From: Dipteris shenzhenensis
Taxonomy: Eukaryota
Assembly: GCA_047967505.1 (NCBI GenBank)
Contig: CM106538.1
Length of the DNA: 64,000 nt
Direction: 5' to 3' (one strand)
Part shown: one piece after another, positions 36,095 through 60,100 of the stretch
Layout: each line of letters begins with the position of its first letter
Position numbering within the stretch: the stretch's first letter is position 1
Program-made: the position numbers and the translations under genes
Notes under the pieces: model-generated
Told to the model about the DNA's origin: nothing
Databases searched by the model: none
Seen by the model: the letters and a program-made list of their open reading frames with translations, nothing else

Positions 36095-39000
36095 CCCCCC
36101 CTCAATGTCCACCCGCAAGTGAAGTTACTTTTTTGGCCCAATGCCAAGTCGATGAAGATGCCTCTCTAGCAAGTCTCTTCCAAGAGCCTTCGTGAAGATG
36201 TCCGCAGCATTCTCTGTAGTCAGACAGTACACCAAGTCGACCTCTCCATCCATGATGAGCTCGCGTACAAAGTGATATTGAATCTCAATGTGTTTTGTGC
36301 GAGCATGGAACATAGGGTTCTTTGCGATTGCCATGCAACTTTGATTGTCACATGATAACTACGTAGGCTTGTTCTGCACTGCACCCATGTCCCCTAAAAT
36401 CCTCCTCAACCACATTGCCTCACAAGAAGCAAAACAAGATGATTTGTACTTAGCCTCAGTAGAAGAAAGAGCAACTGTAGGTTGCTTCTTGCTAACCCAT
36501 GACATAGCTCCATATCCAAGTGAGAAATAGTAACCTATCACTGATCTCCTACTGTCCACGTCTCCTGCCCAATCTGAGTCACGAAATCCAGTCAAGGTGT
36601 TGCCCTATGTATAGGTGATGCCATAATCAAGTGGGCCTTTGATGTATTTCAGCACCCGCATCCCTGCACTCCAATGGTTCTCCTGGGGCGTATTGGAAAA
36701 CCTACTTAATACACCAGTCGCAAAACTGATGTCCGGCCACGTGTTGCACAAGTAAATCATACTGCCCACAAGCCTTTTGTACTTCGCTTCGTCCACCAGT
36801 GGTGATGAATCCTCATTTGAGAGCTTCATGTCAACCTCCATAGGGGTGCCAACTGTCTTGCACTTAGCCATGCCAAATGCCTTTAGTATCTCTCCAGCAT
36901 ACTTCAGTTGTGAGATGAAGATCTATTTTGGCTCTTGCCAAACTTCAATCCCCAAATAGAAATGCATCATTCTGAGGTCTGTCATTTCAAACTCTCTTCC
37001 TAGCAACTACTTTATCTGCGAGATCTTTTCTTCATGGTTCTCTATTATGACAAGGTTGTTCACATAAAGGATCATGATCATACACCTGCCCCCTTCTCTG
37101 TAGATATACAAATTTGCATCAGATGGGCTCCTCCTGAACCGGTTTTGTAGAAAGTAGGCATGGGGCCTGTTTCAGCCCGTAAAGTACCTTCTTTAGTTTA
37201 TAGACTTTACCTTCTGAATCGAGGATCACAAAACCTGGTGGTTGTTCCACATATACTTCCTCCTTGAGATCTCCATTCAGAAAGGCAGATTTTACATCCA
37301 TCTGAAACACATGCCAACTTTCTGCTGCTGCTAAAGCCAAAACACTGTGAATTGTGGTTAGTCGAGCTATGGGAGCAAAAGTATCCTGATAATCAAAACC
37401 ATGTACCTGTGCAAATCCTTTTGACACGAGCTGAGCCTTGTACTTATCCAACATGCTGTTGGACTTGTACTTGGTCTTGTACACCCACTTGGTACCGATT
37501 ACCTTGTGTTTTGGTGGTCGATCCACAAGGTCCCAAGTGTTGTTCTTCATTATGGAGCCATACTCCAACTGCATAGCCTCCATCCACCTATCATCACCGT
37601 GTGCCTCTTTAAGACACTTAGGTTCTTCAACACAGATCACCTTTGTCATCAAAGTGTAGTTGACCAAGTGTTCCTGTGCCCTTCTTTGCTCCTCTAATCT
37701 CTTGGGCCGGTGGTGTTCGGATGGTTCCTCCTCAATGGCTAGAGGTTCTCTACCATCCAAAAGTTGCTTTACCCACTTCGGGAATGGCCCTTGCTGTTGT
37801 GGTTTTGCAGGCTCTTCTTCCTCTTCTTTATCTTGAATCCTCTCAAGCACCATTGGGGGAGTTCGGTCTGCTATTGGTGGTTGTACTGGATGGATATCCT
37901 GGTCCTGGTTGTCTAGGAAGGAAGCATCCTCCTCCAATTGATGCGGCTGTTATGAGAAGACCACATCGCAACTTACTATTACCTTCTTGGTAACAGGATT
38001 ATAGAGACGGTAACACTTTGCCTCTTCACTATAGCCCAAGAAATACATTTCCAGCTCTTCGGTTCCCATTTGGTCCTGTTAGCATTAGGGACATGCACAA
38101 AACAGTTACATCCAAAAACTTTGAAATGTGCAGGTGAAGGTTTCTTACCAGAAAAGTCCTATAGTGGAGTCATCCCCCATTCATAGCCTTCATGTAGCTA
38201 CGATTCAGAATGTGAACTGCCGTGTTACATGCTTCAGCCGAGAGAGTCTTTGGCAAATCTTTCCCTTTCATCATACTCCTGTCCATTTCGCAGATCATGC
38301 GCATCTTGCGCTCTGCTACTCCATTTTGCTGTGGTGTATATGGCGGGAGTTTTTGCCTCTTGATACTGTGACTTTTGCGGTAACTTTCGAATTCACTTGA
38401 TGTGAACTCACCACCTTTGTTTGATCTTAACTTTTTCACCTTCCTCCCCATTTCTTTCTCGACCATTACATGCCATTCTTTGAACTTACTAAAAGCCTCA
38501 TCTTTAGTCTTCAGGAAGTATATCCATATCCTTCTACTATAGTCATCGATTAGCATCATGAAGTAGTAGGAACCACCCAAAGCTTCTGTCTCCATCTTTC
38601 CATAGAGGTTCGTGTGAACGAGCTCTAGAGGAGACTTTGCCCTGCTGGCCTCTTTAGGAAAGGGCTGCCGATGCTGCTTGCCCATCATGCAAGCTTCACA
38701 TACATTGGGCAAATCTATAATTTCTGATAGGTCTGCAATCATTCCACTTTTATGCATCTCCTTTAAAGAACTAAGGTTTAGATTACCAAACCTCTCATGC
38801 CACAGCTTAGTGTTGCTCACATCGGCTCGAGCATTGAAAGCTGAGAGTTCATAGATGTTGTTGCGCCGTGTACCTTTACCAATGACCTTCCCTTGAAGAT
38901 CCAAAATCTCTGCGTTATTCTTATCGAAGTGAACTTTGAGGTCTCGATCCGTGATCGTAGAAACGGACAAGAAGTTCCTCTTGATATCTGGCACATAAAG

Positions 39001-40142
39001 AACATCGGACAACTGTTTTTTACAACTCCATCTGACTTGAGAGCAATCGTACATTTTCCTTTTGCTGGACATTTTGCATCATTGCTGACTACTACTAGGA
39101 TGTCATTCCCTACCGGATGTAGAGAGGTATACCAATCTTTCCGACTGGTCATGTGGCATGATGCACCACTATCAATAATCCAAGGTTCATCCACAGGTAC
39201 ATGAACTACCTCCATGCAAATCTCCTCAATTGTTATGAACAACTCCACTGGTACTGCCTGCACACTGTTGCTGGACTCTTTCCTTACTCCGTTCTTCTCA
39301 TCTGCAATCTTCTTCTGGCACTCATTTTGCTTGTGCCCTGCCTTGTTGCAATAGAAGCACTTGATCTTCTTCTTTCTCTTTTTATCATCAGAAGAATATG
39401 GGTTACCAGAGTCCTTACCCTTACCTTTCTTTGATCCAACTAAGAAAGCTGAATCTTCTCCAGTTCTCATCTTTTGACGCATCTCCTCCTCCATAAGCAT
39501 TGCACTGAAATCCTCAAAGTTGAGGGACGGAATTCTGTTCTACATATTCAGCGCCGTAACAAGACCGTCGTACTTTGGTGGGAATCCGTATGCACCTTCA
39601 TGCTAGATGGTCATTGGTGATGGTGATGCTAATCGCAGTCATTTGATCGCATAGATTCTTCACCCTAGTGATGAACTTCTTTGTCGTTTCAGACTCAGGC
39701 AGTTTCTCGTTCGCGAGTTGAGTCTCCAGATTCTAAATCCGCCTCTGATTCATGGTCTCGTACTGATTTTTCAAGACCGTCCATGCCTCCTCCACTGTGG
39801 TGACATGTTGAATTAATGCCATGACAGAATCACTTACACTGCAGATAATAGAACACATCGCATCTGCATTTCTTCTTGTCCACGGGAGAATCTGTTGTCC
39901 TGCATTGGCTAGATTTGGTCTCGCAACCAGCCGGCTTCACGTCCACCTCAATAGTAGTATCCCAAAGCTCACATGTGCTTAGGATGTTGAACTTCCAGAG
40001 TGGATAGTCAGTGCTATCCAACTTTTCACTTTTGCCGAATGGTGGGATTGGAAGTCTTGCGGGCTGGGCCATCTCTCACAATCTACTCGCAAATAGAAAC
40101 ACACTACCAAATCTTCTTGCTATAGCCCAAGCTCTGATACCA

Positions 40143-40875
40143 TGTAAGAAAACAATACAACGTCTATGCTCAACAGATAACCGGATCTCGTATGCAAGAG
40201 AGAAAAGCAGATAGTATGGAGAATCAAAAATTTGATTACTGTAAAACTGATACAATAGATGGCGCTGCCTCCCAGCCGTGCGTTCCTGTGTGAGAAGCTT
40301 CGATGGCATGTTGGAAACAGTACAAGATGGAGGCTGGATGCTAAGGAATCAGGGTTGCTTTAGCCAGTGATGAATATGGGCTTCACAGGCTTGCTCTTAT
40401 ATAGCCACTAGTCGTAGTCCATTAGACCCAATTGGGAGATCGACCTAGTCGGCCCAAAACAGCCAACTGGAGATCGGTCGTGAAATAGGCCACCGACCAC
40501 ACATTAGAACCGTGGTACAAAATAGAGCAACTAATTTATGGTTATTGTTCGGCCCAGAGCCATCCGAGAACATCTGGGGCTCCAAACGGGCCCCACAACC
40601 AGAGAGTGGGCTACCCCAAGAAATGCTCCATCTACCCTCAGTGAGGTCAGTCATGGGATGCCTTCCCACACTTGCATGTAGCCTAGTTGGCAATGTGCCA
40701 ACTCTATCTGAAGCCATCTAGCCATCAGGCCACACATGGCCCCCATTTGGTGTCCAAACCAGGACTTACTAGATAACCGAGCTACTCAAATGCCTTCTCC
40801 TCATATGGGGGGCTTACAAGTAGAGTTAGCTAGTTCTCGCATAGTTAAATGAGAGTGGAGCATTGATATCTAACA
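40143..40875 (-). repeat. Copia 5' LTR (733 bp); tRNA-iMet PBS at 40131-40142
   Basis: GCTCTGATACCA (reverse complement TGGTATCAGAGC) abuts TGTAAGAAAACAATA...GATATCTAACA. Confidence 0.95.
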
Positions 40876-43250
40876 CTACCAACCCATCTAAACTCTCTTG
40901 TGAAGATTAAGACCTTGCCCCCCTTCCAAGTAATGTCTCCCTCACACAATTGTAATATGCTCATGACCAACTCTTGATCTACATTATTGAGTCTGAATTC
41001 CCTTCTGATCTCCAGCCATGTCTTCCATTTAAAGTAGTTTTTGTCCCACAAATCTCCCCAAGTGATTAGACCTTTCTTTGAAAGTTGCCATGCTTTTAGA
41101 AAATCCTCATCACTTAGTTGTTGTTTGGTGAAGAAAATAGATAAACAAATTGAGTCTAGAGTCATGAAACTCCCTTTACCAAAGAGGACAATGTGACTCG
41201 ATCTATTCAAAGGCCCCCCATAAGGTTTTCTAGAGTCATACAGGGCTCTGAGTTAGGGCTCGAAGTTACCAATAGCAGAGAGGAGAGGAAAATGCTTCCA
41301 TGTAGGGGCCTTGTAGGGTCTAACAAATTTAAAGTTTCTAAGCAAGAGGTTAGCCCAGTCACTATCAGGGGAAGTGATAGCTTTTATTATCCAAGTGGCT
41401 GTAAGTTTGTAGGCTGCCAATTGGATATTGATTACTCCCAATGCTCCTTCATTTTTGCGTCTGGTATAGAAGGTCAATTTAACCTTTGATATTCTCCTTC
41501 TTGTATCACTACCCCCATAAGAAGGATCTGCAGACTCTAATGAACTTTTCTAAGCCTATTTTAGAGGGGCACCAATAGGAGAGATAAAAAATAGCTATTG
41601 GGAAAATGCATTGGTTTAGAACAACTCTGCTCCATGCAAGATTTGCATGTAATCCTTTGAGTCTGTCTATTTTTTTGTTGAATCTGTCTAGGAACCATTC
41701 CCATTTTTCCTTCATTTTAACATTAAATCCCATAGGAATACCCAACAGCCTGAAGATTTGACCATGAGGAATTCCTTTGTAGCCCATCAGCCACCTATGA
41801 GCAGGGCATATCCTACTTTTGTATGGTTTATTTTGGAACCAGATGGCATACAAAATATGTCCATACAATCCATAGCCCTTTGAATGTCTACATCTATATT
41901 TTAGATAGTGAGAGTGGTGTCATCTACAAATTGTTGATTCACTAGAAGTTTTCCTGAGGGGAGCTCAGTACCTCTAATTCCACCACTGGCCACTTGGTAT
42001 TTTATTAGCCATCCTAAAGTATTAGCAAGCTATGGAAAATAATAGAGGGGCCAAGGGGAACCCTTGTCTTATTGATCTCTTTAGCAAGAAAATTTGAGAC
42101 ATTTCTCCGTTCACACAGACCTTTGCTGATGCTTTGGAGAGCAGTAGAGCAACAAAGGATGTGAACTTTGTCCCTAGCCCCAGATTATTGAGGGACTACA
42201 AAAGCAAATCCCAATTAAGCCTGTCATAGGCTTTGTGAAAGTCAATATTTATTAGACACACCTCTTGTTTACTCTCCTCAGCATGGATGCATCCTTCCCA
42301 TAGGTTTATGATTGCCTCCAAAAGGTGCCTATTTTTTATAAAACCTTTATGTTCCTGTAGAATCCAATTATCCATCTTACTTCTCATTCTTAATGCAAGA
42401 GCTTTGGCATAGATCTTGTAGGAACAATTTAACATGGTTAGGGGTCTCCAATTTTTTAACACTGTCTTGTCTCCATCTTTTGGGATGAGTTTTATAACTC
42501 CTCCATTTATGTGGTTGGGTAAGAAGTCCTATTCAACGTTCTCTCTCCAAACTGCTAATAGAGAAGGGCCCAATGTGTCCTAGAAAAACTTGTAGAACTC
42601 TACTAGAAGACCATCCTCCCCTGGAGTTTTGCCATTAGCCATAGAGAATGCTGCCTCTTTCAGTTCTTGCAGATAAAGGTCATTTTCTAGTTGCATTCTA
42701 TCCAAGCAAGAAACTTTACATTGTCTAACTGTTTGGCATCTGTCTCTAGCCTCTAGAACCTTATTGTCACTTGGGTTAACTATACTTAGTAAATTCTTGA
42801 AATGGCTGACAATAATCTCAACAAATTCCTCTTCTGTTCTGACCATATCCCCATCTTCCTTCCGCAAAAGAGGGATTTCCTCCTGGTTTTTTTTTTTTAA
42901 ATCCTTGTAAAATTTTCTTTGGTTGGTCTATCGACTTTTCCTGCCCACCATTCCCTAAAATATATTTTAGCATTATGGATCTTGATTTGTTCCTGGATTC
43001 TAATTTCCTTTCTTTTTTCCAAAAGTTGTTGCTGGGCATTGCTGTCCTTCATTCTTGCCCTTTGTTCAAGTTGTTCCAGATCATTCTTCAACTTATCCAT
43101 TCTCCTTGAACACACTATTCAAAATTTTTGGACTTGTGTAAAGTCGAATTTGAGAAATGGACTAAAAGCCAGTCCAAAAATTTTGAATATACTAGTAATG
43201 TTGTTTTTTGAACTAGATTTGACAACTCAAAACAAAAGATTTGATGATTA
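40876..43250 (-). mobile_element. L1-type LINE ORF2 middle part (reverse transcriptase)
   Basis: KTPGEDGL, NWRPLTMLNCSYKIYAKALA, IDFHKAYDRLNW, QFVDDTTL, FRLLGIPMG. Confidence 0.9.
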
Positions 43251-43279
43251 AGTACTAAGAACATCAATGCATAACCAAA

Positions 43280-43540
43280 TCTCTTACAAAGGTGGTCTAC
43301 ATAAACATCTTCATAACTTCTTGTGAATAGAGCTACTATCACCTAAGAACATCAATAGATGACCAATAATGGATGACCAATTCTCTTAGAAAGGTGGTGT
43401 AAATAAACACCTTTATGTATAAGTGGTGTGCATACACCTTTATGACCATTTCTTTTAGAAAGGTGGTGTACATAAACCCCTTAGAAAGGTAGTGTAGATA
43501 AATCCTTTTATGTGTAAGTGGTGTACATATACACCTCACT
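43280..43540. repeat. Cluster of about six short direct repeats, consensus AAAGGTGGTGTACATAAACAC
   Basis: Copies near 43288, 43390, 43421, 43459, 43485, 43516. Confidence 0.75.
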
Positions 43541-43744
43541 TGGTATTAAAAAACACCCTTAACTATAAAAATACATTTGACATAAAGTTTAAAATACACC
43601 ATTAAGTATAAAATGGACCTCATAAACAATCTTTATACACAATAATGAGAGTAAAGAAATCAAAAAAGTAGTAAACTTTTTATTAGATATTCGCTTTACA
43701 TAGAAGTTCAAAACTTGTGATTACAAAGCCGTCAGCCATCATGT

Positions 43745-46700
43745 TACTCAGTACCAATGTCCTCAATGCCAGGCCCTTGACTACCAGGGTCCTGACTAAT
43801 AGGCTGCTCTAAGACTGGAGTCTCAGTAGCAAGATCCTCAATAGTTTGCTCTTCAGTTCCAAGCACCTGACTTGTCTAGAGTCTCATGACCAAGTTCTTG
43901 GTGAGTAGGGACCTGGCTACTAGGTTCCTGACTAGTAGGCTGCTGCTCTGGAGTCTATAAGGTCATGGTTGAAGAACCATCTATGCCTCCTGGTAACTCC
44001 TCCTAATCATGCTTTGCCTCATCCATACCTTCTTTGAGTAAGGCTTCCTTGCTTGATCCACTTGCATGTCCTTCACCCAAGGTCAAGGGTGCCTTCCTCA
44101 CTTTTAATTTCAATGGAAGTGCTTCCACCTCTTTAGCCTTACCTTTTCCTGTGACGTGCTGTACTTCTACTTCTTGCTACCACGATCCTTCCCATATGAT
44201 GAGTGGAACCTCCTTGACTCTAGTTGACAATTGATCACCCTTATTCTTTGTGCGGATTTCTTCTTTGCATAAGTCATCGGATGTAGAGCTTTCATCCTCA
44301 TCATCACCTGAGCTAGAATCATCACCCTCAGACTCACTACCCTCGTCTTTAACATTTTTCTCAGTACCCTCTTCTTTGACATTTTCCTCTTCAAAGAAGG
44401 TAGTGCAACTATAATATGTGTCAAAGAACTCAATTTGATGGGGGGTATCAATGACATTTACATTTCTACCTTGGCGTAGCAATTTCTAAGTAGCAAAATC
44501 CATTCGATATAATGCTACTTCCCACCCATCATTTAGTAAATTCTTTATCATCTCTAGTATCACATCAGGATCCATCGGCTTTCTGTAATCCACCATTATT
44601 GCATCAAGCTTAACCTTATTGTCCTCAAAGTAATGAAGCTCGAGAGTCCTTAAAGGAATTTTGATTAGATTGCCACCACCCCTAGATAAGAAGCACATCA
44701 AGAAAGGTTGCAAGACTTGAATGGTAGTGCCTTCCAAGACAGTCATATGATTGCGTAGGACTATGCCATGGTATACTTTTGAAAGTAAATACCCAAATGC
44801 AGATGTCAAACTCACATACAAGGCATCCCTTTGTGATTCTGTCATGAATAGGACCAACATTGATCTTTCTTATCTGCCATAGGACCTTCTACGATAAACC
44901 GCACAAGTTCAACTATCCGTAACACTACAAGGTCTTGCAGTTCATCTATGAAAAATATGCATGGCTTCTCCCAAGCATGACCGCTCATTGTTATGAAATG
45001 CTCTATATCAATGCCATTGATGTGTGCAAATTTTGTATCATTCTTGTATAGCATGATATCATAGGAGAAGCTGAATGGAGAACCATCATCTAAACCACCA
45101 ATTGCTCTACCTTGGGTAGTGGATTGCAAGGCCTTTCTTTTGATGTCCATATATTCTGTCTCAACAACCTTTGGCATTTTAGCTCTTAGATCCTTTGTTG
45201 GTGTGGCATCTGCATCCATTGAAGCCAACCACTTTCTAGCCCATGTCTTATCAAGGAGTTGACCTAGGCTAAGTGCTTTCTACTTATCCACATCAATTGA
45301 CTTGCCAGCTAACTCATCATCAGATTTTAATAAAAACAATAGTGCCGAGAGAGCAGCCTCACTTTGAATCATTCGGGTGACCACTTCATCCAAGTTGCTA
45401 TGCTTGCTCTTCTTTCCAAAGAAGCAGTCACCACTTAGGATCTTCTTGCATACTTCTTTTGTTATTGCATCTGGAACAAACCTTAATGCTCTTCACCAAA
45501 CAATAGACATTGGTTTCTTTATTTCTTTCCTCTCAGTTGCTGTGTGCTCTGGTGCCTCAAAGGATATCTTCCCTGTTTCATATGCTTGGCAAACATCCAC
45601 CATGCTTTGAAACACTGAGTCCTCATGGAAGACAATGCAAGTAACATCCCTGTATCTTACAACGATGGTGTTCAAATCCTTTGCCTCAACCTTATTACTT
45701 GGTATGCCTTGTGTATTGCTTATAACACCTTTCAAGCATCTATAGAACTAAGTCCTCTTTGCCATGTACTCAGATGTAGGTCTCCTGCCCTTCACTGTTT
45801 GTGGCTTTTCACAACCCATCCATAACTCCCTTGCCTTTATCAAGATCTCAGAAAGAGAAGAGCTTTTTTTCAACCTAAATGGAGCAAAATTCAGCCTTTC
45901 TGATTCTAGAATGTACTTCGAGTCATCGTTAAATATGCATACATGACAAATGACCCGTTGAAACTTTTCCATCCACTCAATCTGTGGTAAGTTTCCTTTT
46001 CTTCCCTCATTAAGGGCGATCCTGCAAGCTTCACAAAAGTGTTGCCCATCAATGGGCTCAATCTTGCATATTTCCAAGAATCTATTCTTTGCTAGCATGT
46101 ATCTCTTCTCGATGTCAGTCCCATATCGGCTTTGGTACAAAGCCTCTCCACGAAAAAAGTCACTCCTTCTAAAGTTCTCAAAAGCATCAAGAAAGTCCAC
46201 GTGCTTTTGAAATGTGACATCAGGCAATGTAAGATCATCTTCTTGAAGTCTCTTAAATGCCATAGGATGAAGAGTGATATTAATAGCAACTGGAGTTCTT
46301 GTTTTCCTCGTATCTTCATACAATTTGCGTGCAAATGTCTTGCAAATGTCTTATCTAGCTTTCTTCGATTTGTGAACAATGAAGCTCAATCAATAAGCAT
46401 TGTGGCCACGCTGAATTGTGAAAATCCCCAAATGTACCCCTCATCCTCTGAAGGATGTAAGTCTGCCACACTTATAGAAAAGTCTTCGAGACTTGTATCT
46501 TCTTCTTGCAGATCCTCCTGTTCATTGCTATCCAATTTTTCGCCTGGTTTTAAATAACTTGCACTTGAATGATCTGCATGTGGAGTAGGAGTTATTTTTG
46601 CTCCCTTTCTGGGAATAGCTGTAGAACTTGAATCTGCTCCACAATCACTCCTTCTTGTTCCTATAGTTGCAGCAGTCAATGGTGTAGGTACAGTTGGAGA

Positions 46701-46890
46701 TACTGTAGCTACTGCCGTAGATATTGTAGTTACTCTTGCCAGAGTTACCGTAGTTATCGCCATAGATATTGGTGGTACAACTTGAGGGTTACATGTTATA
46801 GATGGCGTACTTACTGCTGCACTTACTGTTGCTAAAGGTACAACACCACCACTTGGAAATGCATCCTACATTTTCTTCAATGCTTCTAAG
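43745..46890 (-). pseudogene. Large (~1000 codon) decayed ORF with ParB/Srx-like motif and a possible DNA amino-methyltransferase-like C-terminal region
   Basis: ORF pieces 46386-46763, 45748-46323, 45493-45735, 44842-45228, 44486-44860, 44177-44482 chain on one strand; IEPIDGQHFCEAC (DGQH at 46039-46050); YRKPMDPDVILEMIKNLLNDGWEV...LLRQGRNVNVID; acidic tail. Confidence 0.55.
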
Positions 46891-46894
46891 GCAC

Positions 46895-49188
46895 TTGAAG
46901 AGAATAGTTCTTGGAGAGAGACAATGAAGTAAGAGAATTCGAAACATTGCAGAGTTGGAAGTTGGCACTGGAGGATGTAAGCGTAGAGTACAGAAAGCAA
47001 GGTAAGAGTACATCTTGTTTAGCCTCTTGTTTAGCCATTATATTTGTATATATGTGTCTGTCTTGCAAGAAAATCTGTGATATTGCAAAGTGTACTTGTT
47101 GTAGGGAAGTTTTAGGAGCTCAGAAAGAAAACATTGATCCTAATTTAATTCTTGTCAAACAAATGAAGGGTTTAGTCTCCACTATTGTTGCAAAGAACAT
47201 GATCAAGGAAAAGAAGTTTAAGAAGGTAAAACGTGAAGTTTTTGAAGACTTTGTATCGAAAAGTAAAGTTGACGTCACAAAAATTCAAGAGGCTCTTGAT
47301 GTGAGCAAAGTGAGCAGAAAGCGATATGCTTCAGTATTTAGAGTTGTGTCATCAACATTAAAAGATCAATGGATAAAACGCGTGGTTACCCCAACATCAG
47401 CACAAGTGTGGAAGTAACGAGGTCATCTCAACCAAGAAATTGATAAGTTTATTGGATATTACTTTCATATCGAAAGTGTATATGAAAGTGAAAAGGGAAG
47501 CATTCCATATAATGCTTGGAATGATATTTTTATAGATCTTAAACAATTGCAAAGACTTATGGTTGAGTTCTACAGTATCACATTTGAAGAATGTAAAGGA
47601 GTTTTGAAGTTTGTTGTTGTGAAGCTCGATGAGTGTGAAATCGTCAAGGAAAAAAAGATAGAGAGAGTTTCTACACTTTGATGAATTGAGCACTTGATCA
47701 ATCGATCACAAAGTCCAGCTCAAAGTACTTCAATGTCCAATCAAAAAAGCACATATGGTGGTTGGGTGCATTTGAGGTATGTAAACTATCACCTTCCAAA
47801 TTAGTCTTTGCTCGAAATGTAATAAATTTTATATCATATATCTTGCAAACTTGTGGTTTTAAATTATAGGTGAAGACTGAGGATCATGTAGTACTTTATT
47901 GGGTATTTCATCAAACAGATATACCATCAATTATCAAGAGTCAAGTCCAAGGACACCATCTTCATGTTCTAGGGAAGGGTGATTTTCAAATTGAATGTCA
48001 TATGGAAGGTGACCTGAAAACACTGAAGTCTATGTTCAATATAAGCAAAGGGGGTAACTCAAAATCTCCTTGCTTGTACTGCAACGAACCAGTGCATGTC
48101 CTAGATTCTAAATGATGGAAAAGAGCACCCAACAGAGATAAAATAGATAAAATTTCCAAAGCATTTCTTGAGATCTCATTATGCAATGTTCACATTTGTA
48201 CATTGCATGCATTCTCTAGGATCATTGAGAAACTAGTTTTCCTATATATTGGATTTGCATGGAAAATTTGCCTTGAGAGCAGAAGAAAAGAGGCACTACA
48301 ATCATTAGAAGCAGTGCTATCAGAAATTGGTCTCCATGGAGGAGATGTACATATTACAAAGGATCTTTAAAAATCTACTAATGGAGAAGATGTTCCTATC
48401 AAGCCATCTATTGGTGGAGTAAAGGCTAGAAGATTTCTGTCTCATCCAGAGAAAAGAAAAATAAATGGCAGTAAAAAAACATACGTATCAAGGATAAAGT
48501 ATAATTTGTGGAGAAAAGTACACAATGCTATCAAAGATCATCAAGCAGATGGATTGGCAAGAGATGTCAAGGCAAAAGTGTGGAAATGCTTAGATAAGCT
48601 TTTTGTTTTTTGTGACCAAGCCACCTTTAGCAAAAATGATCAACAAGCATTTGAAGAAGTGGCAAAGAGTTTTTGAAAGCCAATGAAAGAGCCTTGGACA
48701 ACATGTAACATCACTCATTACATGTTAAGCACAATATCATGTTTTTGTGCATGTTTGTTTGTAAAAGCAAACAATATTAGTTTTATATATTCTAATGTCC
48801 ACTTGCCTATGTATCAAAACAGCATATAATCTACAATCACCTTCCTTTCTTTGTAAAAAAATATGGATGCCCTACAATTTGGTCCACATAGGGAATGGAG
48901 AAATCACACTACATGGCATGAAATGCATTCTTTGGACATACACAACAATTTAGAGGAAAACAGAAAGCCAATAGTTTAAAAGAAGTCTTCCAGTGGTTCT
49001 ATCGAGGAATACTACAAAGACTTCAAGCCAAGAAGAAAGTTAATACATCACAGGTTAAGTTAGTTTTCAAATTGGCTCAAAAGGAAAGAAGGAGGAAGAT
49101 TTTGGAGAACTTAAATGCAGTACAAAGACATGCTCAGTGGAGACACTTAGACATATTTGTAAACCACAAATGGGTAGATAGAAGCTAA
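46895..49188 (+). pseudogene. RAG1/Transib-like DDE transposase with three introns (47002-47104, 47777-47869, ~48725-48822)
   Basis: FVVVKLD (D 47628), VQSKKHIWWLGAFE|VKTEDHVVL, EGDLK (D 48011), PCLYC (48071-48082), ICTLH, IGGVKARRFL, ITHYM|HIIYNHLPFFVKKYG, WST*GMEKSH (E 48898); collinear with the RAG1 core. Several stops, at least one frameshift, third donor damaged. Confidence 0.8.
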
Positions 49189-49439
49189 GTGCTAAACCTT
49201 GTTCATCAATAGGTGTCATCCAATGTAACAAATATTTTTTTGCAATGAAGAAGACTTGGATCTTTCATTCATAAGAAGTCATTGTACGTAACCATTGAAA
49301 TATTTGAAATGTACTACATATATTTCTTTTTGAAAATGTACATTGTTTTTGTCACAAATACACATAAACACAACTAAGACATTCTAAAATGATAGTGTTC
49401 TCACAATTCAACCTTACATCTATCTTGTAAAATATACAA

Positions 49440-51340
49440 TGCCATACATGCTATCCTTCCAATGGTTGGCAAACTTTTCTTGGAACCCTTCTTGTGACTT
49501 TGATTGGAGACCTTTTTTTCTTAAGCTGAGGAGCAACCAAACTCTTCTCATCTTACGCAAGAGTTGTTGTGGTCACAGTTTGCTCTTCAACTATTTTGTC
49601 GAGAAGGGCCACCAAAGAAGGCTCTTGATTCCTTATGAGCTTATGCTTTCCATAAGTTTCCAAGGAGAGGGGACCCTTTACACCACAAGCTAGTGCCTAG
49701 GCAGTATATGCCAAAATGTAGCTAGCTCTTGAGCCTTGCTTTCTAGCATAACACCCAAGAATAAATAAAGCAGACTGCTTCTCTATCAGTATGATCTTAT
49801 CTGTTTGCCACTATATAGGATGACCACCCATAACTTTTGACAAACACTTGAAAAAATAAGTAAGAGTGACTCCATCATTGCTAAGTAATTTGCTAAAAAT
49901 CAGTATCTTTGTAGCAGATAGGTCTTTAATATAATGAGAAATGCTTGATAATTTACCAAGCCCAGGAATTCTACTTCCAGCTGCCCTCAGGAGAAATGTG
50001 TCATCTTCAATGAACAACTGCCATATGCAAAATACACAATTTAGATTTAAAACATACCATCCAATTGCATATCTAAACTCTAAATTCAAGAAAGGTAGGT
50101 TCCTTACCTCAATATTCTCATCTTTCTCTAGTATATCATCCTTAAACAAGGAGATACCCATCTCCTCCTTCCCCTCAGAGCTGCGACTGATATCCAAGCT
50201 TGCTACTATGAGGTTCATTTGTGCTTGGGTTTCCTGGAAGATTGTCTAATGCACCTCTTCATACATTTTGGCTTGCTCAAAATAGATGGACAATGCTTCC
50301 GAAGGATTGAATTTGTCCTCCAGCTCTAACAAAGGATCATCCATCAACCCTTACTTCCTTGTCAACCTTGCGAGATTGTGCAATAAGGGCAATTGCATAA
50401 TCTTGTCTCAAATTAAACAAGTACTATACGTCATACAACAAGACATACACTTTTCCCTCAATATTGAACGAGGAAAAATGGGCACAGTGAGGTCGGGCTC
50501 TCAGCCTCAAGGTCATCCACTATGACAGAATCCAGCCTCAAGGTTGTCCACTATGACAGCATCTCTTAGGGTCTCATTTTTTAAGGCCACTAGGTCCAAT
50601 GCTACCACTGCAAGCTCCTTTTCTATTTGGTTGATCTTCTCTTCCACTTCTAGTAGGTCTGACTTATCTTCTGTTTCCTATTCCTCATTGCTATCCTTTG
50701 GGTCCTCAACTGATCCATCAGCATAGTGTACATACATGGAAAATGCAAGTGACTCTTCAAGTATCCTGAAATTGCCCTTGTGTATAGTGCAGATTCCCTT
50801 GTGGTAGTCTTCAAAACTATCAAACAGCTTGTGCATTTGATACCTCATCCTATCATTTGTAGCAATGTCCTTGATATGTACAAAAGTCTTATTGTTGACA
50901 ACTTTTGATCCTTCAACTATCAGCCTGTGGAAGGATTCATACAGCTCTACAAGAAAATCCTTGTGCTGTGTCAAAAGAGACTACAAATCCATCTCCTTAT
51001 TGAACATCTCATGGTATTTGTGATAGTGCATTTGGCAATCTGACTTCTATAGAAATTCAAAGAGCTGCAATCGGGGTTACTTCTTTTCCTCCTCCTCCGT
51101 TCCCTTAGCAATTGACTATCCACCTTTGCCTGAACCCTTGTCATTGGGCTCTCTTCCCTTGACTACATCATACAAAATTAAAAATGAGTCCCACACATAT
51201 AGCTAAAAAGAAACATAAGCACTCATAAAGAAATTATTACTAGGAGATTCCTCCTCCCTTACAGCATAAGCTCAGAGGTCAATGGTCTTCCTGACACGTC
51301 TCGCTGCATCAGCTAGATGGTTAGCTCCTCCTCTTTGAAA
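49440..51340 (-). pseudogene. Decayed unknown gene convergent with the RAG1-like gene (helical/coiled-coil)
   Basis: Chained minus ORFs 50678-50974 and 49811-50218 plus read-through LLEVEEKINQIEKELAVVAL; intron-like AT-rich gaps; no family recognised. Confidence 0.4.
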
Positions 51341-52645
51341 GTTTGCAAAAAAATGCGATATGGCTGTCTTTCTAGTTAAATACATTGAAATCTCATTTTC
51401 TAGCAAAAAGTCCTATTGATGCAAAAATAAATCTAGTAGAAGTGAGCAATTTGCTCAAAAATGAGATATGGGGTATTCCTAAGCTAAAGAAGGCTCAAAT
51501 CATGTTTTCAAGAAAACTCCTTAGCCACATAGTATTAATCTCCAGGCTTCATATAAAACATCAGGTCCAGACAAATTCAGGTAAATCTTCAAGATAGTTG
51601 TCTTAATCATTCAAAAGATGAAGCAAATGCCTAATAGCTAATGCAGTAGAATTAGATAGATCAACAAGACACTTGGAAAGGTAGATCAAGATTGTGGTGT
51701 ATTTAAGTACCTATATCCTTTCTCTCCATGGCTTTTGCGCAAGTATAGGTAGGTGGGGATGATGATGGGAGAGAAGCAAGGTGTAAAGTATTGTCCAGAT
51801 GAAGATGAGGAAGAAGGTGAAGATCTAAAACTATTGAATGGATGGAGAAAAGTGAAGATAAGAGTAGATGGCACATATTTCTATTCAAGTCACACTTGTC
51901 AGCCACACATGCCAAAAATGGTCTTCAAGGTACTATTTTTAGAGTATCTAGTGATTGCATACACCTATTTTTAGACCAAGCTACCACACTTAATCATTCC
52001 CTTTGTCATCTCCATCTCTAGTTTCATCTTCCTCCCTATAGGCTTGTGACCGAGACAACCTCAATAGCTCTATTACACTAACCCAATATAGCTCCAACTC
52101 CAACCTCACCAGCTCCACCACCCATCTCCACCACCCATAGCAGTTCTAGCCACAACCTCCCTAGCTTCATCTCACACCTCCCCAGGTCTAGCTTCAACCT
52201 CACCAGCTCTAGCTCTACACATAAGCCCAAGTAAGCAATTTGTCACCAGTCATTGGTTTTTCTTGTTGTTAAGGTGAAATGACCATTCCATAGCTTTCTC
52301 TCAAAGACACTCCATGAGTTGTTTTTGTTGAGCACATCCCATCTGCATTCTACGGTTTAGGAGGATGGTGGAGTCCAACTGATTGATTAGATTATGCTTC
52401 AACTAAATTTGCTCAAAAATGTGATTTGAGCTTTTTCTTTTTATTTCTCCTCCATATCGCGTTTTCTAGCAAACTTTTTGCATGGTGTGTGTTATTGAAG
52501 TATGTAAAAAATATTTGCTAGGAAAAACACGATTTCAACATTTTCTCTATATTTTTGCACCATATTGTGTTTTCAAGCAAACTCTTGGGTGGCTAATTTC
52601 CTTGTTATGTTTGGGTTTTTTTCCAGGAGGAGAACACAATAGACT

Positions 52646-53474
52646 ATGGCAAGAACCAAAGCAAGAGCTAGAAGGAAAGGGAAAGGACCTGACATTGCAG
52701 GGGCTGCCACAGCTCCATCCATATCAAAATCCTCAAAGAAGGGGAAGCCTATGCACATGCTAGCAAGGAATAGGAAGAAGAGAGTGAGCCAAATCAAAGT
52801 AAGTATATCTTTCTATGTTAATTGTTTTTATGTCTTTGTAGCATTCTCTTTTTCATAAGCTAAATGAAGTTATTTTTTGTAGTTTTTTGAAGACTCAGAT
52901 CCACTGGAGCCTTCAGCACTCTGTGTGTATAGTTGATCCAAGTATATCTTTCAAGTTGAAGGATAACACAACATCAACCAAAAACATTTCCAAGGGGTTT
53001 GGTTTTTGTAATTTTAATTTGGTTGATATGATTCTCCTCCCATATTGCTCAGAGTATGTTCCCTGACCTTTTCCACTACTACCCTCTATTGACAAAATCT
53101 TGATATGTCCATATTGCACTGGACCTCTGTGACCCAAAGTTAAAGATGTTAGATTTAACTCAACCAATGCCATTGCAGGTATAGTAATCATTATCACTTA
53201 TATTTCTCTCCCTCTTATTTTTGCACTCTTCATAGTCCAATATACATCTTAGCTTTCTATTTTGATAAAACAGACACCACAGGAGGATCCTTTCTCTTGT
53301 GGATGGAGGACTCTAATAAGGGAAAAATATATGATGGACACATACTTTTCAGAGAAAGAGCCTGAATTTGTGAGTACTTTTATTGCATACTACTTAAGAA
53401 GTTCTAAATTCAATGCATTGATACCAAAAAGATTGAAAACATTCTTTGTTTTTATTGGAGATGAAAGAGGATAG
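52646..53474 (+). pseudogene. Spliced ORF beginning MARTKARARRKGKG, with a later CxxC; function unknown
   Basis: ATG 52646; donor GTAAGT 52799, acceptor TTTTTTGTAG 52882; ICPYC near 53105-53120; donor 53179, acceptor 53235; frameshift and stops in exon 2. Confidence 0.45.
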
Positions 53475-54229
53475 TTTTGGCTCTAAATATGTACATAGCT
53501 TCAAAGCAAAGACAATATCTATGTAACATCTAATTCGAGAACTGTAACCTCAAAATGAGAACTCTAGGGGAATCTTTGAAAGATATCCTTATTTTGATGT
53601 GAAATTTACATACTTTTTAAAAAGATGGTCATTTTGCACAATGTCTTTTGACAAAAGATGTAAAAACCATTTTTTTTTAAAAAAATCGACAATGGTATTT
53701 CAAAAAACAAGCATGAAAACCTTTACTTAGAATACCAAAAACACATAAAATACAATAATGTCTCAAAACCATTTCAATGCAAATAAAAGGGCCATGGCAT
53801 AACATATTTCAAAAGTCTAACATGCTAGAAATTACATTGCTTCACAAATATACATGCCATTGGTCCTACAAAGAATAGTACTCATCCTTGGATCCTATAC
53901 CTTCAGAGCTAAAGCTTTGTGGGGTAGTAGTAAGAGCCTTCCTCCACTACACACTCTCTGAGTCAACCTAGCCAAGTTGTGATGCCACCCTCTTTCTTGC
54001 ATGGCATGTCTTAGCTTCAAGTTGTGCACTACATCCAATCAATGTCTTCAGAATCTTTCGGGATAATATTATGTATTGTGACCCTTTGGCAATTGCCCTG
54101 CTTGTCTTAATTTAAATTAATATCAAAATATCTAACCCAATTGCTCAGTCAATGATATCATCTACCAAGCTCTACCTTGCTTTCTTTATGTGACCAAGCT
54201 ATATGCTTGGTTAATGATATCATTGTTCG

Positions 54230-54716
54230 AGTGAGCCAAAACTTTTGAAAGCTCTATATTATTTGAGAAAAATTGAAACTTTTTGTAGATGCATATTTTG
54301 GCACTTTTGACATCACAAATGAAATCCAAAGACTCAAAAACCCTAAAAATGACTGTAAATATGAGCACATTCCGATGATTTTTAAAAAAACCCAGATGAA
54401 AAAGCATTCACTTACATGCCAGGTCGATGATATCAACGACCTGAAGCATGTTTGGTCGATGATATCATCGACCAAGAACGTTCTTGGTCGATGATATCAT
54501 CAACCAAATGTGTGTTAGGTCACTGATATCATCGACCGAGAGTCGGGTGCACGCTTTCCCATCTAGGGTTTTTTTTTTATCATCAAAAAGTACCCGTTTG
54601 CAACCATTTTTAGGGTTTTGGGGTCTTTTGAGCTCATTTATGATGTCAAAAGTGCTAGCATATGCATCTATAAAATTTTGAAATTCTTCTCAAAAATTTA
54701 GAGCTTTTGGCTCACT
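54230..54716. repeat. Imperfect ~490 bp foldback centred at 54479/54480 with four 20-bp palindromes
   Basis: Outer AGTGAGCCAAAA...TTTTGGCTCACT; centre CCAAGAAC|GTTCTTGG; GGTCGATGATATCATCGACC variants at 54422, 54454, 54486, 54518. Confidence 0.92.
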
Positions 54717-55199
54717 GGAATAAAAGTTTTTCATTCTTTCTTTATGTGAATTAAAAAGAGAGTGAAAAGTCTTGTTTGAACAATACTGAGTAGAATATGC
54801 TATTAGGTGCAACAAACTTAGATAATAAAAGTTACTTTTCGAGAGAAGTACAAAGGTCTGGGGGAGAAAAAAACTTTAAGACTTTGAGAATAGAGAAAAT
54901 TAAAAAATATTTTGCGATATAGTGGAGGTCCTTTTTAATTTGTAGGCATGATGTTTGAAAAATGCATGAATTCAATAAGTTTTTAGTCTTTGACTATGCA
55001 AAATATAGCTTTTTTGAAAAAGTTATATTTTAATGGATCTTTGAGGGAATCAACGGGTACCAATGTTACATACCTAAACTATTCAATTTTAAAGCTGCTA
55101 GAGGTCTCTTCCCCTTATCCAGCACTAGACCGAACAATCCATATAGGAGAGGGCTCAAAAGGCCTTGAGGATCTCTGGGTTGAACAAGAGGCTCAAAAT

Positions 55200-56380
55200 G
55201 TCCCTGTCACAATCTAGAAGATATTCTAAAAGGTGTCGCAATATTTGGTTTCAGGGAATGCTATACTTTCGAAAATAGTTTGGCTCTATATGATTCTATG
55301 ATGCTACCATCAGGGGCTGGCCAATCAACTGTATTCCACGCCGGGAGATCTTGCTTTTGTAATAAACCATGTAAGTGAGCATTGTCCCATCAATTAATAA
55401 AAGTGATCATGAAAAAATATACCCGATTCAACCAGAGTTGTTGATTTTCTATCTTTGACTGTAGCTCCCCAATAGCACCATGTAAAGCATCAAAGAATCC
55501 CAATATGCACTCCATTGGTTACCCTCTTCGCATGATGAGGGATATATATCTAAACCAAAACAGAGACTGTCTGTCATGGAAAGAAACAGTTATTCCATTT
55601 CAAGTATTTCATTACACAAATACACTTACAATTGGATCTATGGTGTGGAAAAGCAGGATAATCTCATAAAGTTCTCGATGCATGTAGACATGTTGTATCC
55701 GAACCTCTCTGATGCATCTTGTGCCTTCCTTTTTAACACTAAAATCTTTCACTGTGCCCTTCCAAGAAGCCAAAAAAGTGTTAGTTGATTGTTGCTTTCT
55801 CCGCTTGTTAGGTTGCATTAGAACCCAATCTCCTTTTGCCATTGCTATCCTTTTCTAACTACCATACACATTCATAGTATTGGAACCTTCTACACATGAG
55901 ATTAGTGAGGTAGGTATTCATGGCAAAGAGATACTTTGTACATCCACATCTCCACCAAGTAGAGCAACATACCATTTCCTAGTGGCACAACCAAAGTTTT
56001 TGGTTGCCATCTGAAATCCTCACTCTAATACCTACTGCGAAGTCAAAGAAACACACACCAAAATGGTAAGACATTAACAAAAATGAACAAAACTGAGAAC
56101 AAGCAAATAAAAGGTGAAAGGAGCTTATTGTCTTGAAAGTTTAAGAGCATCACAACAACAGTGATGCAACGAGGAATGCTTGTCAAAGAGAGAATGGAAC
56201 GGCTCATTGTGGTGAAAGTAGAGGAATGCTTGTTGAAGAGAGAATGGTGCCGCAGAACAAGAGAAAGTGGATGGTTGTTTTGGGTCACCATGTGGGAAGG
56301 TTTCAAAATGGAGCTCTGTTTCGATTTTGGGTCCACATCTCTTGATACGACAGACGAATCGTAAAAGAATAAAAAACAAA
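55200..56380 (-). pseudogene. Decayed spliced gene with a BAH-like domain
   Basis: AKGDWVLMQPN...WKGTVKDF...IREVRIQHVYMHREL, intron ~55630-55551, then YIYPSSCEE..PMECILGFFDALH; order resembles the BAH pattern GD.V / RI / W.Y..EL / E.F.S / I.G.C.V. Confidence 0.45.
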
Positions 56381-56499
56381 TCTTCTCATTAATGCCACAC
56401 GCTTGTAACAACATAAAGTACTATTTTTTGTTTTCATATTTTTGTCTTTTTTTAAGACTTTCTACATTACGTTGGCCTTCTCCTCATTGGTTGAGAGAC

Positions 56500-57192
56500 A
56501 TTTTTCTGAAACCCTAAAAGGCCCCAAAATGAGCTCCCTTTTTTCCTAATGATCCAATTGGGGCATAAACTGAAACTATAGTAAAAGAAATGTTTTTCAA
56601 CTCACATTTGAGAGCAACCCATCTATGATTTAAATCCTGATGGCAGTTAAGAACACAGTCTTTGTAATGAGATAGTATTCCAATTGCAATTCCTCCTCTG
56701 CCTTCCTCATGATCAATGTAAATCCATATCCTTCTATTGTCTATACTCTTGTCTATTTTCCAAAGTATCATTAGTGACTTTAACTTCTTGCAAGACAAGA
56801 AAGGTTGGAGAAAGAGAATTTTCTCTCAGCCAATTGGCTAGCTCCTGACCTTTCCATGGGTCAGTCAATCCACAAACATTAAGTGTGAGGAATGAGTAAG
56901 GGCTACTTACCATTCTTACTTTTCCCATTTTTTTCCTTGGGGGAAGGGATTTTGGGAGGGGCACTTTGGCCTTTGACCCGAGAGATTCTTCTCTTATTTT
57001 TAACAATGGCTTGAGGTTTAATAGGGGCTTCATTAGTCTTTTCCTCTTTTTGAGCCAAAGGGAGTTCTTCCTCTGAATCCCCTACCTCAGAGTCACTCAT
57101 GCTAGCATCTTGTTGGTTGACATCATCTTCAAACTTCTCAGGTTTGACCTCATCCTCTTCCATCTTAGCATCCAAAATCAATTGCCCAGTTT
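56500..57192 (-). mobile_element. L1-type LINE: ORF1 end and ORF2 APE endonuclease N-terminus
   Basis: FLTLNVCGL...LVLQEVK, GRGGIAI, RWVAL...IVSVYAP. Confidence 0.85.
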
Positions 57193-60100
57193 CACTACAA
57201 ATTATAGGCCTTTTCTGACAAAAATACCGACGTTTTTTACACTTTTTTTTTAAAAAAAACGGGCGCAAAGGTCGTTATTAATGTTGTTATAAGTGCCGGA
57301 AAAGAACGGTTGCTATATAAGTGTCGCTATATAGCGACGCTAAAAAACATCACTATATAGCGACACTGGTAAACGTCTCTATATAGCGACACTGGTAAAT
57401 GTCACTATATAGCGACGATTAACAGAACTTTAAAAAAAACATTAGTGGGGCTAAATAGGGCCATAGCAAGCCCTGTTTTTCCCCACTAATGTTTTTTTTT
57501 TGGTAATTACAAAAAAAAAGTTTTTTATTACAAAATTTTTCTTACGAAAATAGTGATACAAAATTGCTCAAATGAAATGATCAAGCAACAAAAGCATATA
57601 TATGTCAAAGATATACAACATTGTTTGTTACAAAATTACCCTTTAGAAAAGGGTGATACAAAATTGCTCAAACGAGCCGATATATAAAATGATATACATG
57701 GTGAAGTATATGCAAACTACTACTACTACTACTCATTTGAATCGTCGTCCTCCTCCTCATCCTCGTCTTGCTGGCTTGATCCTTAGTCCTCGTGAGCTAT
57801 GCCTGCTCCCTAACCCTCGTGAGCTATGCCTAATGAGCTATGCCTAATCCCTAGCCCTCGTATCGCTCGACTCCGGTGATGGGACGCTCGAGCTTTGACT
57901 CTAAGAGTGAAACCATATTAATTGAAAATTAGATTCGAACTTAAAGAATAAAACAATTTAGAAAGTGAGATTACAAGTAGGAGTAGACTTATACCATGTG
58001 AGCAGCCACCTCAGCAAAATCGACCATCGCTCCGATTGCCTCCTGCTCAATAAACCATGGCTTTCTTCCAATGTGAAACGCATGTCGCGTCTTTGCATCT
58101 GTAGGAAGATAACCCATCGTAGCTTGCTGTGGAGCTAATTTATGAGAGTTAGATAAAGTTATGTAGTAAAACAAATAGAACAATACATTAAATGAGAAGA
58201 AGTAGACTTACCACAATTGCCTCGAACACCAACCATCCGCTTGCACCAAAGTGCGAAGTACTTATGGCATCCAGCCGTCTCCTCGCAACCCTCCTCTAAC
58301 CCTCGAACATTTCGAGATGGTCCCTATTCTGCTTCTTGAAGAACTTCCAATCAGTTTTGTCTACCCAACTGGGTTTAGCCATCCCCTTTGCGATGGAAGT
58401 ATGCAAGGTTGATCTACGATGCTTCAAGACCAAACCCATGTGCTCTCACATGTAATTATCATTGAACTCCCAATTTGGCGGGTTAGGGTATTTTTCTTTT
58501 AATTCATCGATGACCGCCTGCTTCTTTTGGTCATCTTGATATCGCCAATTAGTAGCAATGCCGCTCTTGAAGTGGTGGCTCATTAACCACCTCATGGTGG
58601 CCATCACTGCTTTGCCCTTTCTATCTTCTATTATCTCTCCAATAGCCATGATTTGATACGAGAGGTCCTCTACTGGGTAAGGAGGACTCATGGTAGTGGT
58701 AGAGTCAGAGCAAGTGGAAGCTGTGCAAGTGCTTCCAGAGCGAGGAGTAGCAGTGGGAGTAGGAGAGGGCAAGGGACCTGACTGGTACTATGTCTCGAGA
58801 CCAAGTGGAGACGTGTAGGGATGTGAGTCTGCTAACTCGTCTACATCTCTCGAGTCAGCACAACATAAGCGGCCCCTCCTACTCTTCCTTCCCTTATAAT
58901 AGGCACACCCAGGTGATGACCCTTCGGTCGAAGGGGCATGAGGGGACGGCTGGGCAATAGGTCTAGCCATCGGTGTAGGAGAGGGAATTGATGAGGTCCT
59001 CTGAGATAGCAGAGAGAAGAATCTCGCTGCCTCCTCATCGATCATCTATGCTACAAATTCGTCGGGACTCCCAACAAAGCCATGGGCTGCTAGCAAAGGA
59101 GTTCCCTGAGGGGTAGTTGCAGTGCTACGTCCAAGAGAAGTCGGGCCAGGGGTAGTCGTAGTGCTACATCCGAGAGGAGTCGGGCGAGGGGTAGTTGCAG
59201 GGGTAGGCCCCTGAGGTGTCGCCTGAGAGGAATCAAAGTCCTTTGGAGAATAGAGATCATGATGTCTCCTCTTATGAGGCTGTCCATACTCGTCGGACGT
59301 GCGACGTGATCCCATGTCTAATGTAGACACAAACACGAAAACAAAAAACAAAAAACAAACATAAGCATAGGCATAGGCATATGCTTATGAAAAGAAGACA
59401 AAAAGAGAGGAAAAGAGAAGAGAAAGAAGAGATAAGGAGGAAAAAAGAAGAGAAAGAAGAGAGAAGGAGAAGGAGAAGGAGAAGAGAAAGAAGAGAGAAG
59501 GAGGAGGAGAAGAGAAAGAAGAGAGGAAAAAAGAAGAGAAAGAAGAGAGAAGGAGAACGTGAAGGACATGCATAGGCATATGCTTATGAAAAGAAGAGAA
59601 AAAGAAGAGAAAGAAAGGAGAAGAAGGATATGCATAGGCACAGGCATAGGCATAGGCATATGCTTATGAAAAGAAGAGAAAGAGTGAGGAAAAAAGAAAA
59701 GAAGGGAAGGAGAAGGAGAAGGAGAAGGAGAGGAAAAGAGGAGAAGGAGACATATGCTCATGCATAAGCATAAGCATAAGAGAAAGAAGAGGGGAAAAGA
59801 GCATAAACATAAGAGAAAGAAGAGAGAAAGGATATGCTTATTCTTATGCATGAGCATATAAGCATAAAAGAAAAAGAGAGAAAGATTAAGCATAAGCAAA
59901 TACATATGCTTATGAAAAGAGATCGAAAGAGAGGGAAGAGGGGGAGAAAGAGAGAGGAAAAGAGGAAAATGAGACATGCTCATGCATAAGCATAAGCATA
60001 ACAGAAAGAAGAGGGAAAAAGAGCATGAGCATAAGAAAAAGAAGAGAGAAAGGATATGCTTATTCTTATGCATGAGCATATGAGCATAAAAGAAAAAGAG

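Follow-up and report, generated by a model that had tools for sequence, protein, structure and literature searches.

A decayed transposase with a RAG1-like predicted fold and a convergent partner gene in a probable mosaic of dead repeats from Dipteris shenzhenensis

Giant cargo-carrying transposons, such as the fungal Starships and Teratorn of fish, have defined ends and cargo that recurs between copies. The evolution of RAG1-RAG2 is usually discussed through Transib and RAGL elements only. The subject of this study is a block at 43250-56500 in a 64,000-nucleotide stretch of Dipteris shenzhenensis DNA (assembly GCA_047967505.1, contig CM106538.1), referred to here as the window, which is eukaryotic and repeat-rich in its sequence character. 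An earlier note had proposed a candidate giant transposon there, about 13 kb long and lying between two same-strand pieces of a long interspersed nuclear element (LINE); it listed five decayed genes, labelled ParB-like, RAG1-like, coiled-coil, MARTK-start and BAH-like, and read them as one large element, or two joined, with chromatin-related cargo. Our analysis favours a different reading, in which the block is probably a mosaic of dead repeats in or beside an L1-type LINE and not one transposon; our verdict is that the mosaic comprises at least two elements. Its core, at 46.9-51.1 kb and perhaps to 51.5 kb, would be the decayed remains of a compact DNA transposon with two genes, truncated at the 5' end. 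The 3.6 kb on its left (43.25-46.9 kb) would be a different repeat with one long open reading frame (ORF), lying directly against the cut end of the transposase, and the 5 kb on its right (51.1-56.5 kb) would be decayed sequence, either non-coding or no longer recognisable, that contains a foldback.

The closest described systems are of several kinds. According to PMC9435367, RAGL elements consist of convergent RAG1L and RAG2L genes between terminal inverted repeats (TIRs) that resemble recombination signal sequences, with a 5-bp target site duplication (TSD), and RAGL and Transib elements are reported from animals, protists, plants, fungi and bacteria. Kojima's paper (PMC12730594) places EnSpm/CACTA, Mirage, Chapaev, Transib, Plavaka, ESTA, Lanisha and RAG1 together in the CMCT clade, some lineages of which were recognised as RAG1-like solely by structure-aware comparison. 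The termini expected for the clade are 5'-CA..TG-3', with a TSD of 2-5 bp, and those for RAG1/Transib are 5'-CAC, with a 5-bp TSD. The superfamily Lanisha was newly proposed from the genome of a moss (PMC8245031). Histone cargo has been described in Dothideomycete fungi, where hAT elements carry and amplify a histone H3 coding sequence (PMC6710886).

The transposase and its predicted fold

The gene labelled RAG1-like was confirmed as a decayed DDE transposase (Table 1), a single reading frame that contains stop codons and changes frame at least twice. A phmmer search with 47870-48921 as the query against 1.84 billion representative proteins returned 193 relatives at E≤1e-3, of which 15 also passed E≤1e-30; the best match was 54% identical, and most were short fragments. 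A homology search that started from one relative, P0130, gained one further relative. Metagenome (environmental) contigs, scanned with a seven-row alignment of the transposase, yielded 34 related loci on contigs of up to 6.1 kb.

The fold was predicted for P0130. Its AlphaFold model, based on a 131-row alignment, had a predicted local distance difference test score (pLDDT) above 90 across most of residues 120-500. All Foldseek matches listed to rank 49 were RAG1, amphioxus RAGL or HzTransib, with a best E of 7e-11, and Hermes came next at 3e-3. In the VIA comparison, model residues 91-512 were placed on RAG1 468-967 with a Z of 19.5 and a root-mean-square deviation of 4.1 Å over 364 residues; the Z values for the other structures were 15.5-17.8 (HzTransib), 17.1 (BbRAGL), 10.7 (P element) and 6.3 (Hermes). 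The overall transposase architecture and the D, D, E triad are shared with RAG1, RAGL and Transib, and by linear offset the glutamate lies where E962 of RAG1 would be. On the predicted structure of this relative, the multi-domain fold around an RNase H-like core would place the family in the RAG1/Transib superfamily, and the window gene can be called RAG1-like as a statement of fold and clade. The gene would have encoded a cut-and-paste enzyme in which the D, D, E triad and the CxxC and His motifs accompany the RNase H-like core.

The family differs from RAG1 and Transib in that Pfam and PDB profile searches detected no sequence similarity between them. Neither Pfam nor NCBIfam gave a family for the window transposase pieces; phmmer with the window transposase matched no PDB chain at E≤10, and a profile of 18 family sequences matched no RAG1 or Transib chain among the PDB sequences at the same threshold. 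The Pfam RAG1 family was found in none of the window pieces or of 12 family members, and no transposase or RAG1 family was found by Pfam in any of 10 long members. Membership in Transib proper is not claimed because sequence similarity was not detected and the ends are undefined. An Atlas search with the transposase of locus L019 returned clusters of DUF1280 (score 0.89) and of RAG1 (0.82-0.85), which we treat as no more than leads.

All six motifs listed in Table 1 are readable in the window. The residues invariant throughout the family are the aspartate in GDLKTL, H-x-C-x2-H and E-K-x-H, which correspond to D459, H531, C533, H536, E756 and H759 among the distant members (alignment A6). The window's subgroup, in which CLYC and H-x4-H are present and D48, C68, C71, H108 and H113 are invariant (alignment A4), adds CxxC, a motif that is missing from the protist-like subgroup of P0130. 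The invariant D, CxxC, His and E motifs are the same as the marks given for the CMCT clade in PMC12730594, and by motif pattern the family would belong to that clade, with the P0130 subgroup lacking CxxC; in contrast to the clade, the window family matched none of its Pfam transposase families. The window transposase may be of the same lineage as Lanisha.

In one database protein, P0083 (493 aa), DUF7794 (Pfam E 2e-54) is fused to a piece of transposase that shares 58% identity with the window; the protein probably reflects either a chimeric gene model or a host gene that received an insertion. Among the 10 long members, one has DUF7794 on an unrelated N-terminal part.

The convergent partner, gene B

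The window and the related loci were compared by tblastn in both directions, with 161 window ORF pieces from 43000-57500 and, in the reverse search, the locus ORFs against the window. Only 19 of the 161 pieces matched, all within 46908-50245, and the locus ORFs matched the window only at 46898-49179 (+) and 49619-51067 (-). The second interval is the gene described in the earlier note as coiled-coil and designated gene B here, which is a real, conserved gene. In nine loci (L001-L006, L009, L015 and L019) it lies tail-to-tail with the transposase, and in three of them (L003, L006 and L019) the two genes together occupy 4.5-4.7 kb. Because the convergent pair recurs at nine related loci, the transposase and gene B are parts of one element; they constitute a two-gene module. 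A gene B-like motif was also found in L021, on the same strand as the transposase. Of the genes that the earlier note read as cargo, gene B alone recurred in the related loci.

The gene B product is acidic and about 600 residues long, with a conserved C-terminal domain. Its ORF is divided at one alignment position in most loci, which looks like a conserved intron, and the N-terminal 160 or so codons, the least conserved, may reach to about 51.5 kb in the window. A convergent second gene is also found in RAGL, but gene B belongs to no family in Pfam or PHROGs and, in contrast to the RAGL partner, gave no Kelch or PHD match; its model was poor (pLDDT 51.6, confident only at residues 160-285) and the top structural Z was 5.2. 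Conservation and position make a dedicated accessory factor, acting in DNA or chromatin binding or in regulation, the most likely role of gene B. We infer that an intact element would have been excised and reinserted by its transposase; any order of events at the locus is likewise conditional.

Immediately past the 5' end of gene B, where the contigs often stop, three loci have arrays of 16-38-nt motifs, many of them palindromic or present in both orientations (L001:5009-5257, L009:5051-5343 and L019:4939-5150), which look as if they were repeated sequence. At the place of gene B or the H3-like gene described below, L020 has a different convergent ORF (3761-4207, minus strand) of 149 codons, cut by the contig end, that may represent an accessory gene of a third type.

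Junctions, flanks and extent of the element

The related transposases have an N-terminal domain of about 190 residues (YHLHID...EY.P...DLW.DG..YP). When a hidden Markov model (HMM) of this domain, built from seven loci, was compared with the window, only its last 24 positions matched, at 46928-47002 (E 1e-5), and all remaining matches had E≥0.6, which places the break in the window transposase at about 46.9 kb. The cut-off coincides exactly with the start of the ParB-like unit, and about 190 N-terminal codons are gone. Of the two forms of the original proposal, two joined elements fit better than a single one. The window copy is truncated at the left and its right end is undefined.

The ParB-like ORF, of about 1000 codons, contains at least seven in-frame stops and about three frameshifts and has an acidic, low-complexity tail. 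Four database fragments are homologous to it, three of which are 84-87% identical, decayed and located on one 3675-bp contig, while the fourth is 56% identical. Contigs from X1, a small sequencing run of 2 million letters in which absence of cover is no evidence, span 43.1-47.4 kb with 90-98% likeness and a word depth of 10-25; one of them has an extra T at 44865, exactly at the window's frame change. No X1 contigs were found at 47.4-56.2 kb or 41.0-42.9 kb, which in so small a run is not evidence. Judged from these copies and fragments, the ORF is a real decayed gene, but the ParB label was not borne out: no ParB-type domain was found at E≤1 in Pfam, NCBIfam, PADLOC or PHROGs, no PDB sequence matched at E≤10, and the DGQH tetrapeptide near 46000 is the sole ParB-type trace. 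An Atlas search with an uninterrupted 200-codon portion gave unnamed bacterial clusters only and was uninformative, the homologous-protein search with the read-through gave no relatives of near length, and viral contigs scanned for both the transposase and this ORF gave no match. Relatives were absent from all 34 loci; upstream of the transposase, no minus-strand ORF of at least 90 codons was present in the roughly 400-850 bp of flank in L001, L003, L009 and L026, and the left flanks of the related loci had no repeat arrays. Because the X1 contigs that cover the ORF are 90-98% alike, the unit looks like a separate repeat, and we regard it as a family of its own that was joined to the truncated transposon.

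It is quite unlikely that the whole block is a single composite transposon of about 13 kb, carrying the ParB-like gene, gene B, an H3-like gene with the MARTK start and the BAH-like gene as cargo, with its ends deleted inside the LINE. The block does lie between two collinear, same-strand L1-type pieces, its genes all have a comparable load of stops and frameshifts, as the earlier note had remarked, X1 contigs appear to span the junction between the ParB-like unit and the transposase, and the transposase family does acquire accessory genes. However, ParB-like or BAH-like pieces occur in 0 of the 34 loci, none of which matched pieces from 43000-46900 or 50250-57500, the transposase is without its N-terminal 190 or so codons at the junction, and no profile test upheld the ParB or BAH label. 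The absence of TIRs and of a TSD, conceded by the earlier note, was confirmed by self-comparison and repeat searches of the window, which also found no matching subterminal repeats; the repeats at the left edge are without a partner, no common pair of ends encloses the genes, and 0.3-0.4 kb of the LINE is missing, so that the insertion was not clean. In common with Starships and Teratorn, the block exceeds 10 kb and has a mobile-element enzyme gene among several unrelated genes, but it differs from them in having no ends, in the absence of cargo beyond gene B from the 34 relatives and in the truncation of the transposase at the junction. Pfam searches of six-frame read-throughs of 43000-57500 (4833 residues), an insensitive format, gave no match, nor did an Rfam search of the window.

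In the right-hand 5 kb, a short ORF with a basic start lies 1.1-1.5 kb beyond gene B and is the MARTK-start gene of the earlier note. The ORF is present and MARTK occurs once in the window; when the whole window was shuffled by dinucleotides, the motif arose by chance in 6 of 300 shuffles. No histone fold was found in it by Pfam, or near it by an HMM of the H3-like genes from the related loci. Those genes belong to another clade of the transposase and were found in 5 of the 34 loci, downstream of the transposase and on the same strand. Histone folds were recognised in L012, L013, L025 and L031, with Pfam Histone above the cut-off in L012 (6e-26) and L025 (3e-18), and L017 and L025 start with MARTKQTA. 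The genes are 44-64% identical among themselves, and in L025 the MARTKQTA tail is joined to the histone fold via a spacer of about 170 residues; this divergence and the long spacer point to maintenance as an accessory gene more than to recent capture. The chromatin-related cargo originally proposed has a counterpart in the related loci, but in the window itself neither a histone fold nor a BAH domain was detected. The H3-like genes beside the transposase at five loci resemble the arrangement in the fungal hAT elements, but the transposase superfamily is different, the H3-like genes are divergent, and the window keeps the MARTK start only.

These genes raise a further, doubtful possibility: that a three-gene element extends from 46.9 to about 54.7 kb and comprises the transposase, gene B and an H3-like gene of which the MARTK first exon is left, with the palindrome array as its right subterminal region. 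The single MARTK, the MARTKQTA and histone-fold genes by related transposases, and the short palindrome or inverted-motif arrays past gene B in L001, L009 and L019 are consistent with such an element. Against it, searches of the window detected no histone fold, none of the 34 loci combines gene B with an H3-like gene, the arrays follow gene B within 100-400 bp in the gene B loci as opposed to 3 kb in the window, and the palindrome motifs of the window and of the loci are not related in sequence.

The foldback noted previously was recovered, its pairing being placed by self-comparison at 54248-54707. The palindrome GGTCGATGATATCATCGACC is present in five copies within three mismatches, four of which are 32 bp apart at 54422-54518. 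Farther left, just before the MARTK ORF, 51.5-52.6 kb is flanked by copies of a repeat unit about 70 bp long, in direct and inverted orientation (51448-51519, 52406-52476 and 52561-52584), with tandem repeats of 21-52-bp period in between at 52090-52209. The BAH-like label was not supported, as the ORF pieces at 55201-55899 had no BAH match in Pfam at E≤1 and no PDB sequence match at E≤10.

The same-strand LINE flanks were established for the left piece, of which 42196-42927(-) aligned to human L1 ORF2p residues 383-613 (E 4e-17) and in which a typical LINE linker is readable to about 43200, but only weakly for the right piece. There, 56734-57081(-) gave weak PDB matches (E 0.11-8.7), nine of nine to residues 6-47 of L1 endonuclease or ORF2p; Pfam on this interval and a PDB query with the second ORF of the piece gave no match. 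Collinear, same-strand L1-type pieces would thus flank the block. Between them, as the earlier note had recognised, part of the endonuclease is missing, about 100-135 codons (0.3-0.4 kb) by the L1 ruler. It is very unlikely that the two pieces represent separate insertions, 5'-truncated on the left and unrelated on the right, with ordinary repeat-rich DNA between them. The 5' truncation of LINEs is common, the missing codons and the other LINE fragments in the window fit such an origin, and the pieces are not directly comparable because they do not overlap; against it, they are on the same strand, in the correct order and both match the L1 clade best. The direct repeats at the left edge were also verified: AAAGGTGGTGTACATAAAC occurs four times at 43288-43503 (0.01 expected by chance) and a second motif twice. 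The motifs there lie on a single strand, with ≤0.01 chance matches expected, and no inverted partner was found anywhere in the window.

Other repeats surround the LINE. Its 3' end is present in two copies, 35378-36095 and 40143-40876, which are 88% identical and in the same orientation. The 26-bp tandem units just upstream of the LINE ORF are probably LINE 5' sequence and outside the block. They are followed by a high-copy repeat that adjoins the LINE on the right (57484-60000; X1 word depth 70-250), with tandem repeats at 59339-60297 and minus-strand ORFs at 58446-59045. Further transposable element families seem to be present in the window: an integrase-like peptide (..TPQQNGVAERK..) at about 38230-38530(-) and a PIF/Harbinger-like peptide (..VERAFGRLK..) at about 31190-31350(-), both noticed by eye only, in chance alignments.

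Several observations weigh against the mosaic with a compact two-gene core, 1) no TIR pair was found in six related loci, the contigs of which may stop before the ends; L019 has a single 16-bp inverted match, and the related loci have no CA..TG ends and no consistent TIR, 2) without TIRs or a TSD in any relative, the size of the intact element is not fixed, 3) larger relatives with extra genes could not be seen because the contigs of the loci do not exceed 6.1 kb, 4) the remnant may extend further right than we have placed it, because the MARTK ORF lies 1.1-1.5 kb beyond gene B and H3-like genes occur in another clade, 5) X1 contigs seem to extend about 0.5 kb beyond the 46.9-kb junction, with depth to about 47.4 kb, so the junction may be repeated or orthologous, as would fit a composite unit, 6) the fold model is that of P0130, which is 31% identical to the window over 169 residues, and not of the window's broken gene and 7) no sequence profile in the Pfam and PDB searches ties the transposase family to RAG1 or Transib.

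Table 1. Positions of features in the window and of H3-like genes in related loci
Feature	Position	Strand	Basis or remark
L1-clade LINE, 3' part: endonuclease end, linker, reverse transcriptase, tail	40100-43250	-	L1 ORF2p alignment
Direct-repeat array: 19-nt motif x4, 22-nt x2, 24-nt x2	43255-43536	+	repeat searches
Long decayed ORF, about 1000 codons (ParB-like)	43700-46865	-	translations, four database fragments, X1 contigs
DDE transposase, decayed, N-terminally truncated; predicted RAG1/Transib fold, CMCT-clade type	46898-49185	+	phmmer relatives, fold of relative P0130, 34 loci
Transposase D1 motif	47622-47639	+	readable in window
Transposase D2 motif	48005-48025	+	readable in window
Transposase CxxC motif	48068-48082	+	readable in window; CLYC in window's subgroup
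Transposase VHICTLH motif	48188-48208	+	readable in window
Transposase HIIYNH motif	48820-48840	+	readable in window
Transposase E motif	48892-48909	+	readable in window
Gene B, decayed, convergent partner of transposase	49619-51067	-	tblastn both ways; alignments A5, A7, A8
Short ORF starting with basic stretch MARTKARARRKGKG, histone H3 tail-like	52646-52852	+	MARTK start
Foldback: palindromic 20-nt GGTCGATGATATCATCGACC between 98-nt inverted arms	54141-54723		self-comparison, repeat searches
ORF pieces labelled BAH-like	55201-55899	-	label unsupported
L1-clade LINE, 5' part: N-terminal extension and first half of endonuclease, one frameshift	56514-57274	-	ORFs, weak PDB matches
Four 26-bp tandem units, each with palindrome GTCGCTATATAGCGAC	57318-57442		just upstream of LINE ORF
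H3-like genes in related loci	L012:2375-2704, L013:1888-2223, L017:2589-2753, L025:3633-4436, L031:1371-1496	same as transposase	

Meaning for the transposase family

The giant cargo transposon reading was not upheld; the window copy is a dead fragment, and the interest lies at the level of the family. Its transposase keeps the whole RAG1 core architecture, as predicted, yet is invisible to sequence profiles, and it is found in many environmental eukaryote contigs, where its regular partner is either gene B or a variant of histone H3. Literature searches gave no description of a RAG1-fold or Transib transposase with gene B, H3 or another partner, a point on which the supplements of the Lanisha and CMCT papers may bear. 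If the lineage is Lanisha or Chapaev/Mirage, the transposase is already known and the partner genes alone would be new.

A bolder proposal, which we consider improbable but worth stating, is that the RAG1-fold transposase represents an undescribed, widespread eukaryotic lineage that is never alone, accompanied by gene B, with a new fold, in one clade and by its own divergent H3 in a sister clade, the window perhaps keeping relics of both. The PHD finger of RAG2 reads the H3 tail. If the proposal is true, RAG1-RAG2 would have an independent parallel, a second RAG1-type enzyme coupled to a partner directed at chromatin, and a model for the origin of such partnerships would be available. A further RAG1-fold lineage with other partners would broaden the RAG1-RAG2 comparison.

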